Source: Candidatus Zixiibacteriota bacterium | GTDB lineage: Bacteria > Zixibacteria > MSB-5A5 > CAIYYT01 | Direction of reading: 5' to 3' | DNA: 32,434 nt | Assembly: GCA_040235515.1 (NCBI GenBank) | Contig: JBECKX010000008.1 | Coordinates: 1-32,434 of the forward strand | Shown: positions 22,703-27,320 of the stretch, one piece after another | Position numbering within the stretch: the first letter of the stretch is position 1 | Layout of the letters: the number at the start of each line of letters is the position of its first letter | Position numbers and translations under genes: made by a program | The notes under the pieces: generated by a model | Databases searched by the model: none | What the model saw: only the letters and a program-made list of their open reading frames with translations | What the model was told of the DNA's origin: nothing

Positions 22703-24358
22703 ATGGGAGAGCTCATGGCAGCAGATGACTTGTCAAAAGCAGAGTTTCGGTTTAGGAAATCCTCAAGCGTAGGAATACCGCACGCAGAGCAGGATTCTAA
22801 GTTTCTCGACGCATGTTTCGTGAACAATGGGCTATTGGACATTGCGTTAGACACTAATGAACCCAAGATATTTCTGCATGGGAGGACGGGTTCCGGTAAG
22901 ACAGCTCTAATCAAGAAAATCAACTCTATGAAGCCAAAGCAAGTGATCTTGATAAGACCGGAGACATTGGCGCTGAACCATATATCAAATAGCACCATTA
23001 TCAAGTTTTTTGAAGAACTAGAAGTTCGCATGGATTTATTCTACAAGCTCCTTTGGAGACACACGCTTGCGGTGGAAATACTCAAGAAAAAGTATGAGAT
23101 CACTACGCCGAAGGCCCGCAACAGTTGGCTTATGTGGCTAAAGGACAGATTCGATAAGGATGAAGGGAAAAACGCTGCGCTTGAGTATATACAGAAATTT
23201 GGAGATAGTTTTTGGAAGGAGACAGATGAGAGGATTGCTGAAATAACCACTACTATAGAGCGCGAGCTTAGTTCACAAATAGGTTCGGATCTGAGTGGAA
23301 TTATGTCGGCTGGTGCGAAAGGGCGCAGTCAGATTAGCGAACAGCAAAGAGCGGAGATAAAGAAACGTGGTCAAGAAGTCGTAAGCAAAGTAAAAATCAG
23401 GGAGCTAGATCAGATTATCCGGATGTTGGACGAGGATATATTAACTGATGACCAGCATCCTTACTATGTACTAATTGATGGTTTAGATGAGGATTGGGTC
23501 GAGGATCGTCTGCGTTATAAGCTTATAAAGGCTCTTTTAGAAGCTGCTAGGGATTTCTGTCGAATCAAGAATGCCAAAGTGATTGTTGCTATAAGAAGAG
23601 ACTTAATGGAAAGGGTGTTTCGATCGACACGTCACGATGGACAGCAGGAAGAAAAGTACATGTCCTTGTGCATTGATCTCCGGTGGAAACGCAATGATCT
23701 AATAGATCTCATCGACAGGAGAATTAGATTCCTTATTCAAGAGCAATACACGTCCAAAGAAGTAGGCTTGAAACAGCTCTTGCCGACGAAAATAAGCAAG
23801 CAAAACCCCGAGAAGTACATCTTGGATCGGACTTTATTGCGTCCAAGGGATGCCATAGTGTTCATAAATGAGTGCATCAATCTGTGTGAAGGTAAGCAGA
23901 AGTTCACGGCCACCATGATTCAGCAAGCGGAACGAGCGTATTCAAAGAACCGGCTGAACTCCGTCTGTGACGAATGGTATGCAGACTATCCGGAGTTGTC
24001 CCGTTTCGCATTTCTGATTTTGCACGGAAGATCGCATTCGTTCTACTTGCACGAGATTTCGGAGAACGAGTTTGACTCTATGTGTATTGAACTAGCTTCG
24101 AGTCCGCCGCCTGACTGCAAGTTCTTATGGAGTCTTCTCGACAGAAGATTTGATGGGAATATATCTCTCAAACTTTGTGTCTCCAATATATTTGCGGTGT
24201 TCTTCAAGACTGGCCTGGTCGGACTTCGCTTAACGTCAAAGGACAACTATATCTGGTCATTCAACGAAGAATCGATTGTCTCTTCCGATGAGATTGAACC
24301 TAATACGCGCGTGATGATACACCACGCGTTTCGAAATGCTCTGAGTGTAGCAGACTAG
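22703..24358 (+). CDS. P-loop ATPase, Sll1717/FunZ-like family
   Basis: Walker A GRTGSGKT, Walker B VLIDGLDEDW, YILDRTLLRPRDAIVF, C-terminal GLVG...IHHAFRNAL; AT-richer than the flanks. Confidence 0.8.
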   Translation: MGELMAADDLSKAEFRFRKSSSVGIPHAEQDSKFLDACFVNNGLLDIALDTNEPKIFLHGRTGSGKTALIKKINSMKPKQVILIRPETLALNHISNSTIIKFFEELEVRMDLFYKLLWRHTLAVEILKKKYEITTPKARNSWLMWLKDRFDKDEGKNAALEYIQKFGDSFWKETDERIAEITTTIERELSSQIGSDLSGIMSAGAKGRSQISEQQRAEIKKRGQEVVSKVKIRELDQIIRMLDEDILTDDQHPYYVLIDGLDEDWVEDRLRYKLIKALLEAARDFCRIKNAKVIVAIRRDLMERVFRSTRHDGQQEEKYMSLCIDLRWKRNDLIDLIDRRIRFLIQEQYTSKEVGLKQLLPTKISKQNPEKYILDRTLLRPRDAIVFINECINLCEGKQKFTATMIQQAERAYSKNRLNSVCDEWYADYPELSRFAFLILHGRSHSFYLHEISENEFDSMCIELASSPPPDCKFLWSLLDRRFDGNISLKLCVSNIFAVFFKTGLVGLRLTSKDNYIWSFNEESIVSSDEIEPNTRVMIHHAFRNALSVAD

Positions 24359-24448: not shown

Positions 24449-25059
24449 TCCGCCGGCTGCGCGTGGCCATAGATCACTCACGAGCGTGCCCGTGACCTTG
24501 GTCGCGGTCTCGGGCCAACCATACTCCATTCAGCAGTCCGCGACCAAGGTCGCGGCCACACGCCACATTTTCGTACTGCCAGTAAGAAAAACGCCGCGCA
24601 CCGCCTGCTCGCCGTGGCGAGAGGACGTACGCGGCGCACAAACTGTGGATTTCGGATTCCTTAGGAACCACGGCAAAGTCATCCCTCGCCCCGGGCGCAG
24701 CATGCTGCGCCCCTACAAAGCCCCCCTACTTCTTCATTCCCTCCAGCAGCTTCCTGATCTCCGCCGGGTGCGCGTGACCCTAGATCACTCCACGAGTCGT
24801 GCCCGCGACCTTGGTCGCGGTCTCAAGACACCCATTCTCCATTCAGCAGTCCGCGACCAAGGTCGCGGCCACACGCCGCGATTTGGTACTACCAGTAAAA
24901 GAAACGCCGCGCACGAGGACGTACGCGGCGCACAAATTGTGGATTTCGGATTCCTTAGGAACCACGGCAAAGTCATCCCTCGCCCCGGGCGCAGCATGCT
25001 GCGCCCCTACAAAGCCCCCCTACTTCTTCAATCCCTCCAGCAGCTTCTTGATCTCCGCC
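24449..25059. repeat. Imperfect tandem duplication (311 bp + 294 bp) of a REP-rich unit
   Basis: Copy 1 24449-24759, copy 2 24760-25053; TCCGCC at all three junctions (24449, 24760, 25054). Confidence 0.92.
24897..24930 (-). terminator. Probable terminator of the fibre gene
   Basis: Minus strand CGCCGCG-tacgtcctcgtg-CGCGGCG followed by TTTCTTTT. Confidence 0.55.
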
Positions 25060-27320
25060 AGCTCGTTGCGTAGCTCGTCATTGGATGCCGCCAGCTCGCG
25101 GTTCTGACGCGCCAACTCCTTGATCGCCGCCAGCGCAATGCCGGAAGGGTCAATCGTCGAGATCGTCTTGTCGTTGACGCCGAGCCCGAACACCGAACTG
25201 AAATCCTGCGCCGTCGGCCCGATATGCTTGATGCTCTGACCCTCGACCTTGTAATTCCACTCCGTGATCAGCAACTGCTCGATCTTTGCCAGCAGCTCTT
25301 CGCCATCAACCGCAGTGAAGTTCTCCTTCAGGTTGGCGTCCGAAGCATTCGTCCAGGTGCCACCCGAGGTCAACAACGCACCCGATGAATGCACGATCGG
25401 ATCGAGTGTGCCGCCTACACTCGACTGAAGCGTGAGCGAGGAAATCGTCCCGGAGAAATCATCGCAACCCAGCGAAACTCGCGAGGAAGCGGAATCTACA
25501 GAACATTCCAAATCTACGTTCGAGGAACTGCTTTCACGACGCAGTGTATTGGAGCACTTGGTCTTGTTGGCCTTCTCTTTTGCCTTCATCAGCGCCGGCA
25601 AGAGCAGAGCATCGGTGAACTCAAACGTCGTTTCCGTTACAACGGAATCTGGTGTCGTCGTTACCACCACCCTGTTCCTGTCAGCTCCGGTACCTTTGGT
25701 TTTGATCGCAACAGAACACGTAGTAGGCAGACACCGATCTTCGATTTCACTGTCTGGTATATTGTCGCCATCGCTGTCGGTGTCGATATAGCGGCGCGTC
25801 GAGTCGGCCGTGCAGACCATCTGCATTCCACTCGACGGTCCCGAAGGCGCAAGCGTCGAAGCTCGCGATTGCAACACTGAACCGCCCGGTAACGCGCCAC
25901 CGACCAGATACAGTTCCGGGATGCCGTCACCATCCAAATCGGTGTCGCACTGAACTATGGCGGACGAATCATTGGATGTTGATACTACCCGGTTTCGATC
26001 CGCCCCCGTACCCTTCGTCTTAATCGCCACCGAACAGGTTCCGGGCATCAGGAGCTGGTCAATCTCTTGTTCCGGTACTCCATCCCCGTCGCTGTCCATG
26101 TCGAGGTAGTGACGCGTCGAGTCGCTGGAAACGACCGTGATAACCCGGTTCTTATCCGCCCCGGTACCCTTGGTCTTGATTGCCATCGAGCACGTGCCCG
26201 GCATCAACCGCTGATCCAGTTCAGCCTCCGGAACACCGTCCCCATCGCTGTCGCAGTCGATATAGCGTCGCACCGAATCTGCTGTACAGATATCAAGTGT
26301 TCCGTTTTCAGAGCCCTGCGAGCCAATTCCGCTACACCGAGAGGAGAGAATCGTACCGCCGGGAATCACTCCGCCTACCAACAGCAGGTCAGGTATGCCG
26401 TCATCGTCGAGGTCACCGTCGCAGCGTATTACCGCCGAAGTGTCATTGGTGGACGACACTACCCTGTTCTTATCAGCACCCGTACCCTTCGTTTTGATTG
26501 CCACGGAGCATTGCCCCGGCGATGCCAGCGCATGTACGGAATTCTCGGGAACACCGTCGTCATCGTCATCAGAATCCAGCGTCATCCCGGCAGCTGTGTC
26601 CGAGGCCATCCTCGCAACCAGGTCCGGGACGCCATCACCATCATCATCTCCCCCGGTCGTCACTGCGGAAAGGCCATTGAGAGTAAGGAGATCTATATAC
26701 TTGTGCCCCGGCGTCGTCGGATGATAGTCTAGCTTCAAAGATGACGAGTCAGCATCGCCAGAGGCACTGATCACCTGATCGCCACTGGACTGCACCCGGA
26801 ATGTTCCTCCCGTCCCGTGAGCCTGAAGACCGACTGTGCCTCCACCGCCACCTCCACCTCCACCGCTGCCATCGAGCAGTAGCTCCCCCGGGCCGGTCTG
26901 GAGATCGCCATCGACCCTGATTGCGGTTGATGCGTACGGTACACTAACCAGACGCACCCGTGGAGTGATCGCCTGACCAGCTACGACGACTTCAAGGTAA
27001 CGCTCACCGACTGGTGGCAATCCGCCGCTCGGAGGCGAGGCGAACAGGTCAGCACTGAGCGCCACCGATGACCCAAGCAGAACGTTAAACAAACCATCGC
27101 TAACACTAACCGAGGGATGACTCTCCGACCAGAGCAAAGTTCCACCCGTGGAAGCATCATACACTCTGAATTCCATCGACACAGTTCCGTTGATTGGATT
27201 ATCACTCGCATCGAGAAGCTGGCCCTGGTGATGAATCTCGGTCGGCGCCGCGGCGGCGACCCCGGACATGCACATAAGCAACACGATAAGGACAGAACAC
27301 ACTGCAAGCATGCGCAACAT
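25020..27320 (-). CDS. Secreted tail-fibre-like protein with DxDxDG repeats and C-terminal peptidase S74 intramolecular chaperone
   Basis: Signal peptide (AAA|A); N-terminal HQGQLLD...MEFRVYD...GGTLLWSE...DGLFNVLLG domain; 7 DxDxDGxP[DE]-type loops; SDANLKENF...WNYK...HIGPTAQDF...ALAAIKEL plus coiled coil. Confidence 0.85.
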   Translation of the reverse strand: MLRMLAVCSVLIVLLMCMSGVAAAAPTEIHHQGQLLDASDNPINGTVSMEFRVYDASTGGTLLWSESHPSVSVSDGLFNVLLGSSVALSADLFASPPSGGLPPVGERYLEVVVAGQAITPRVRLVSVPYASTAIRVDGDLQTGPGELLLDGSGGGGGGGGGTVGLQAHGTGGTFRVQSSGDQVISASGDADSSSLKLDYHPTTPGHKYIDLLTLNGLSAVTTGGDDDGDGVPDLVARMASDTAAGMTLDSDDDDDGVPENSVHALASPGQCSVAIKTKGTGADKNRVVSSTNDTSAVIRCDGDLDDDGIPDLLLVGGVIPGGTILSSRCSGIGSQGSENGTLDICTADSVRRYIDCDSDGDGVPEAELDQRLMPGTCSMAIKTKGTGADKNRVITVVSSDSTRHYLDMDSDGDGVPEQEIDQLLMPGTCSVAIKTKGTGADRNRVVSTSNDSSAIVQCDTDLDGDGIPELYLVGGALPGGSVLQSRASTLAPSGPSSGMQMVCTADSTRRYIDTDSDGDNIPDSEIEDRCLPTTCSVAIKTKGTGADRNRVVVTTTPDSVVTETTFEFTDALLLPALMKAKEKANKTKCSNTLRRESSSSNVDLECSVDSASSRVSLGCDDFSGTISSLTLQSSVGGTLDPIVHSSGALLTSGGTWTNASDANLKENFTAVDGEELLAKIEQLLITEWNYKVEGQSIKHIGPTAQDFSSVFGLGVNDKTISTIDPSGIALAAIKELARQNRELAASNDELRNELAEIKKLLEGLKK

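Follow-up and report, generated by a model that had tools for sequence, protein, structure and literature searches.

A predicted secreted fibre with a repeated peptide

We analyzed a window of 32,434 nucleotides from a contig of a Candidatus Zixiibacteriota genome, in which a 766-residue open reading frame on the minus strand (P0001, 25020-27320) encodes a predicted secreted protein like the mosaic adhesive trimer (MAT) fibres that end in a Peptidase_S74 chaperone. All of its features below are on the minus strand. A hydrophobic helix at residues 1-24 (27249-27320; helix 2-22 in the structure model) is a likely signal peptide, and the beta-rich N-terminal domain that follows (26907-27242) resembles the N-domain of Bdellovibrio MAT fibres. 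This domain was modelled as a confident beta domain and aligned with positions 3-77 of the 162 in profile NF053851 at E 7.9e-11 and 42 bits, below the cut-off of 60. Next comes a beta-meander shaft (25752-26570) in which, by sequence and model, six acidic Dx[DN]xDG-like loops (residues 251-259, 303-311, 357-365, 409-417, 461-469 and 515-523) alternate with other long loops; their pattern suggests that the acidic loops may bind calcium. The Peptidase_S74 intramolecular chaperone (25188-25343; PF13884, E 6.7e-11, above cut-off) keeps its SDxxxK motif intact (S660, D661, K665) in columns that are more than 90% conserved, and the protein ends in a modelled helix (residues 725-765, 25023-25148) that is likely a coiled coil.

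An AlphaFold2 monomer model built on a 113-sequence alignment (mean pLDDT 71, pTM 0.32) is a long beta-meander that alternates between short turns and loops of about nine residues. Foldseek returned no meaningful match to this model (TM-score at most 0.16), and an ESM Atlas search with the repeat region gave no usable match. Homologues of P0001 that were named by organism came mostly from Zixibacteria.

The S74 subgroup of Bdellovibrio MAT fibres (Caulton et al. 2024, PMC10769870) resembles P0001, in the available part of that description, by its signal peptide, beta-rich N-domain of ~130 residues, variable beta-rich shaft, S74 domain with SDxxxK and many paralogues per genome. Surface location, self-cleavage and binding to prey or glycans are further marks of these fibres. 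The P0001 N-domain has 28 further tblastn matches in its own genome. P0001 differs in having an N-domain under the family cut-off, and in the acidic loops and shared sequence words of its shaft, which are absent from the same part of the MAT description. The MAT shaft is an intertwined trimeric beta-prism (PMC10769870); the P0001 shaft was modelled, as a monomer, as a beta-meander (pTM 0.32). By itself, the fibre scaffold is a variant of the known MAT kind that matches it incompletely. Elsewhere in the genome, tandem arrays of genes with MAT-like N-domains occur on contigs C28, C62, C84 and C163, with four S74 matches on C84.

A first-pass annotation of this DNA had described a 17-residue peptide present four times, identical at 15 positions and written in scrambled codons. 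We confirmed four in-frame copies within P0001, at 26460-26510 (copy 1, residues 271-287), 26142-26192 (copy 2, residues 377-393), 25986-26036 (copy 3, residues 429-445) and 25668-25718 (copy 4, residues 535-551), with 15 of 17 columns invariant and two varying. In the fibre model copy 1 forms a strand (270-277) and then a flexible loop, and all four copies share this division into a first-half strand and a second-half loop with pLDDT below 50. Because the first half is modelled as a shaft strand, it would have some structural role in the fibre. The S74 domain points to trimerization, in which case each trimer would carry 12 copies.

The codons quoted in the annotation were correct. Of the 95 codon comparisons at identical residues in the six copy pairs, 55 show different codons (58%, compared with 59% expected from P0001 codon usage), and arginine codons change between the CGN and AGR families. 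Synonymous sites between the four copies are saturated, in agreement with the claim that recent duplication within P0001 is ruled out; an old 474-nt duplication spans copies 1-2 and 3-4, giving copy spacings of 318, 156 and 318. The surroundings had been described as varying, which is true in that the flanks are less conserved than the peptide, but they are themselves constrained, with 6-20 of 26 residues identical between copies upstream and 2-10 of 17 downstream. Within a unit of ~52 residues that also holds an acidic loop, conservation is highest in the peptide.

A six-frame scan of the 3.6-Mb genome that allowed 2 substitutions found the core pattern in these four copies only, and a reversed-pattern control had 0 matches among 61 genomes, so the four-copy occurrence is not due to chance. 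Parts of the region are also covered by contigs from two public DNA runs, for which no letter difference is listed within the repeats; these runs are perhaps the source samples and therefore not independent support. No RNA data set was among the listed holders of the region.

Immediately downstream, a tandem duplication of ~311 bp with 87% identity (24449-25059) covers the final codons of the fibre gene and its stop, together with inverted repeats. Pieces of 26-80 bp recur on contigs C51, C91, C103, C113, C121, C146, C165 and C211, like a REP-type element, and Rfam gave no credible match to the repeat. The neighbouring plus-strand gene (22703-24358) encodes a 551-residue KAP/STAND-like P-loop NTPase, has low GC (~0.44), and was possibly acquired and is possibly defence-related.

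The peptide recurs in unrelated proteins and is conserved as residues

The nine-residue core was present in all 120 P0001 homologues listed (463 copies), in a search that favours motif-bearing proteins. Searched as a DNA pattern, it turned up in 18 of 60 relatives and the control gave 0 matches, and a pattern scan of GTDB returned at least 124 loci with the core. The 80 record titles listed from that scan cover at least eight phyla, which we take from the record names to be Bacteroidota, Zixibacteria, Pseudomonadota, Verrucomicrobiota, Planctomycetota, Patescibacteria, Eremiobacterota and Gemmatimonadota. BLAST clustering of 122 open reading frames with the motif masked gave 32 clusters, reduced to 24 when four fibre fragments were merged and four chance-like GTDB matches dropped; 24 is an upper bound because fragments split. 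The four dropped matches (L068, L097, L104 and L110) lacked a signal peptide or context and were left out of counts.

Carriers of the peptide have Pfam architectures that include RHS repeats, carboxypeptidase-regulatory-like domains, DUF5667 with Kazal or cupredoxin domains, FG-GAP and S74 fibres. Some carrier families have no Pfam domain at all, small secreted proteins and lipoproteins are among the carriers, and in several small proteins the peptide lies 1-6 residues from the C-terminus. A crude signal-peptide test was passed by 75 of 81 complete carriers, although the test is lax and was also passed by 66 of 122 controls. There were 0 exact matches to the core pattern in viral contigs, and tblastn with the peptide against phages and plasmids gave none. 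Short segments were also searched against Pfam (58 segments), NCBIfam (58 segments and five proteins) and PHROGs (25 segments and nine proteins), and the fibre's own peptide had no match in these libraries.

Several statistics indicate that the residues are conserved and the DNA is not. Third-position GC of the core tracks that of the host (rho 0.89 over 118 open reading frames), and third-position identity across scaffolds is 0.344, compared with 0.324 expected from codon usage (4587 pairs). Between copies in one protein it reaches 0.512 against an expected 0.399 (61 pairs), a sign that the family does undergo intragenic duplication. Identical 14-mer alleles are shared between scaffold groups far more often than when columns are shuffled: ten between fibres and lipoproteins (shuffled mean 0.94, maximum 4 in 500), six between fibres and other scaffolds (0.33, maximum 2) and three between lipoproteins and other scaffolds (0.54, maximum 2). 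The central 14-mer of copy 1, for example, is found exactly in an unrelated lipoprotein (L140). We conclude that the peptide is under protein-level selection and portable in unrelated scaffolds; the strong selection claimed earlier thus holds at the level of protein, by codon statistics both in P0001 and across scaffolds.

Mobile DNA cassettes in coding genes are known, such as the Rickettsia-type palindromic element. We rejected such an element for this peptide, as third positions across scaffolds are only at codon-usage expectation and there is no DNA-level conservation.

A Bacteroidia lipoprotein family carries the same peptide

In a modelled Bacteroidia lipoprotein the peptide closes a helix and enters a disordered loop (residues 62-75). 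It is kept by 107 of 120 close homologues and by 4 of 139 distant ones, and in a FastTree tree rooted on one distant sequence a group that appears nested among carriers lacks it. One distant lipoprotein has another word of the vocabulary described below in the peptide slot. Distant members have a loosely similar slot of the same length, and by sequence the family is possibly the source of the fibre's word; convergence on the preference of a reader would be expected to give a similar pattern in the slot and in the proline upstream of it. A VIA search with the lipoprotein model matched generic barrel sheets only (Z up to 10.3, rmsd about 5), no sequence relative was found in the PDB, and the lipoprotein profile run on the window's genome matched only the repeats of P0001, with no native copy.

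At L028:1-4174 and related loci, an unannotated Bacteroidia lipoprotein with the word is encoded between siaA-like and siaB/siaC-like genes. These neighbours suggest that the word-bearing lipoprotein acts in a biofilm-signalling operon.

The first-pass annotation had proposed searching for an AIKTKGTGA-type pattern, reasoning that matches in unrelated scaffolds would support a portable cassette and that a motif limited to this repeat family and buried as its core would speak against one. Unrelated scaffolds were found, most of the peptide was modelled with low confidence as a loop in two folds that are unrelated, and lipoprotein relatives exist without it, so the portable-cassette reading stands. 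Nor is the peptide a required fold core, because most of it is loop or disordered in the two folds, it sits near the C-terminus in other proteins and is absent from those lipoprotein relatives.

Alternatively, the peptide could be a self-contained micro-motif for structure or self-association, such as a hairpin or helix cap, whose partners are acidic loops or its own copies. Like the Dx[DN]xDG calcium loop, it would have spread through loop transplant or convergence, and it would need no separate reader. In its favour, couplings between positions of the peptide are found again in every scaffold group, and the fibre model has basic and acidic loops in alternation. Six residues upstream, moreover, a proline is retained by 79% of fibre copies, 98% of lipoprotein copies and 9 of 22 other clusters. 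A helix cap is expected to keep the pattern hydrophobic-x-x-x-Gly-hydrophobic, and this generic slot is kept by 33 of 139 distant lipoproteins against a background of 4%. However, the secondary structure of the peptide differs between scaffolds, and single copies are found where the C-terminus is free and in proteins that have no acidic loops. A structural motif also leaves unexplained the words, presented below, that tile a T3SS-cluster protein or match EF-Tu, and we regard it as an unlikely account.

Carrier neighbourhoods share no modifying enzyme

The peptide had been put forward as a recognition, cleavage or modification tag or as a portable cassette. The portable part of this proposal was upheld in unrelated scaffolds, but a tag cleaved or modified by an enzyme encoded nearby was not, as the carrier neighbourhoods covered share none. 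When we looked for genes co-occurring with motif-bearing proteins, as the annotation had recommended, carrier neighbourhoods were heterogeneous and no modifying enzyme recurred among 132 neighbours scanned, 79 loci of a word-rich family or the regions of 12 relatives inspected by eye.

If the peptide were a tag recognized by a sorting machine, or by an enzyme of the host that modifies, cross-links or cleaves it, this would account for near-invariance with free placement, which are typical of such tags, and the enzyme gene could sit elsewhere in the genome. Compared with RiPP-type and sortase-type systems, though, the carrier loci covered show no dedicated enzyme, and the peptide has neither an invariant modifiable residue nor a fixed end: lysine is replaced by arginine in 3% of fibre copies, threonine is replaced in 10% of lipoprotein copies, and positions are both internal and terminal. 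The ~20 words have no common consensus, and the window's genome has one substrate gene. We therefore judge such a tag improbable. A ligand read by its shape is favoured over a host enzyme tag because no enzyme recurs, one gene in the genome is a carrier, substitutions are tolerated and most carriers look secreted.

In three loci (L064:1327-1806, L069:361-843 and L081:1322-1783), a gene for a dockerin-domain protein of ~160 residues follows several word-bearing fibres.

The peptide belongs to a vocabulary of shared words

Exact 8-mers shared by different scaffold clusters numbered 361, compared with 0, 2 and 1 in shuffles. They fall into 34 groups, or ~20 words by our own count when acidic loops and overlaps are subtracted, and the fibre peptide is one word of this vocabulary. 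P0001 holds others. A glycine-rich second word occurs at residues 316-322 (26355-26375) and again at residues 474-480 (25881-25901); longer alleles in related fibres match a protein described below (L203), and the P0001 copy is too short to score. A third word (residues 570-596, 25533-25613) is found in 17 of 120 related fibres and resembles the post-leader segment of DUF1559 prepilin-like proteins, to which both of its two tblastn matches belong (48% identity, E 0.6). A DUF1559 query of the window's genome gave no match, nor did its control. Using 34 patterns, we found the specific words in that genome only in P0001, one genuine pilin aside.

Most of the 58 short segments had no library match. 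Within carriers, Pfam matched Hcp (E 1.3e-6), EF-Tu domain 3 (E 1.3e-5) and a kinase catalytic loop (0.0014), with a weak match to an eCIS core (E 0.13). Single words can thus mislead annotation, as carriers gain Hcp or EF-Tu matches. Two further words, suspected to be tail-tube-like and cold-shock-like, gave no match in PDB sequence searches, so these labels are unsupported; the tail-tube-like word had one plasmid match, in an unannotated record.

The only PDB sequence match of the fibre peptide was histone H1.1, with six identical residues in a row (E 0.65), and another word resembled an RRM strand (E 0.22). These matches raise the idea that the basic, glycine-rich loop works as the linker histone H1 wing does, gripping a polyanion such as extracellular DNA, and thereby fixes cells within a matrix. 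We hold this to be improbable: neither match is significant, by our estimate a six-residue run is expected by chance in such a library, the fibre model places the peptide in a beta-meander, exact 14-residue alleles would be needless for polyanion binding, and many of the words lack a basic character.

A search with a word-rich segment returned 1216 shorter proteins. The best 120 (P0241-P0360) are mostly of 200-300 residues and largely strings of words; they are likely secreted, lack Pfam domains and, where named, come mostly from Flavobacterium and other Bacteroidota. None of the 120 contains the fibre's core. RHS-repeat proteins (L036, L053, L078 and L087, mostly from Verrucomicrobiota records) have long runs of words inserted between repeat blocks.

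Short segments recurring in different proteins have precedents. The Dx[DN]xDG calcium motif is described as a short loop that turns up in unrelated folds whatever the secondary structure beside it, as a result of loop transplant or convergence (Rigden et al. 2011, PMC3123361). The P0001 sequence has the pattern and the fibre model places it in loops, which alternate with the peptide. In the available text of that study the motif is of low complexity and judged mostly convergent, whereas the words are 14-29 exact, high-complexity residues, of many kinds, some traceable to an intact protein. Bridging themes are also segments common to proteins of different architecture, according to the accessible part of the study that describes them (PMC8136508). 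Unlike bridging themes, the words hardly differ from one protein to the next and are found chiefly in proteins predicted to be secreted. The themes reportedly represent ancient, diverged homologies. A literature search whose coverage excluded supplements and most subscription journals returned no paper for 12 words and no description of a vocabulary for the topics, and we have not found the vocabulary described in print. Exact words of 8-29 residues cross phyla and folds under protein-level selection, and some can be traced to an intact secretion-system protein. This pattern is solid and unusual.

T3SS-cluster proteins as candidate donors and a reading of the words

Following the word-rich family into metagenomes identified intact proteins of 158-188 residues, most of them encoded beside SctJ-, LcrH-, FliG- and FliA-like genes. 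Unannotated proteins of 160-190 residues in T3SS-like clusters with an LcrH-like chaperone and SctJ are at L203:8010-8549, L221:7977-8510, L222:1623-2144 and L224:1404-1967. The first of these adjoins SctJ-, LcrH- and FliG-like genes, and words tile its N- and C-terminal parts: it has exact 8-mers in common with 50 of 158 fibres and 9 of 59 other carriers, and the longest identical runs in the three groups compared are 18, 20 and 29 residues. As L203 was retrieved by similarity to a carrier, its close match was selected, and the direction of copying is therefore inferred from collinearity with diverged relatives. A profile of five T3SS-cluster proteins matched 28 of 242 carriers and 0 reversed sequences. 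P0001 was not among the matches and has only four exact residues in common with L203, and querying the window's genome with a T3SS-cluster protein found no native copy.

An Atlas lead (score 0.85) linked this family to a Myxococcota cluster with T3SS_needle_F in 11% of its members. The myxobacterial T3SS* is described as needle-less, and in the part of the review available its gene set is like that of the donor-like loci with SctJ-, LcrH- and FliG-like genes (PMC10433427). In carriers, only fragments of it are present.

These observations allow a broader and more speculative reading, which we rate as unlikely. Free-living bacteria of many phyla would share a dictionary of fragments copied from the contact-killing machines and abundant proteins of other microbes. 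Shown on fibres, RHS proteins and lipoproteins, the fragments would camouflage the cell, or would decoy or jam its predators and competitors. If so, the dictionary would be a protein-level counterpart of captured invader sequence, and the fibre a multivalent display rack. The EF-Tu- and kinase-like words fit poorly with a purely anti-weapon account.

Our preferred reading, at a probability of about 0.45, is that the peptide is a displayed ligand or mimic loop read by a partner outside the cell. The peptide is one word in a set of short sequences that many environmental bacteria carry in unrelated proteins, and these words would have been copied from donor proteins. The fibre would be secreted, then trimerize and cleave itself through its S74 domain, and the likely trimeric surface fibre would show its 12 copies in loops predicted to be exposed, as a multivalent binding tag or mimic. 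The readers may be predators, competitors or their receptors. If the words are ligands, they form an undescribed recognition code among environmental bacteria and could serve as probes for prey and kin recognition by predators of the myxobacterial type, which the available part of a review calls unknown (PMC10433427). Cultured carriers exist, in named Sphingomonas, Agriterribacter and Flavobacterium records, and the vocabulary is therefore directly testable.
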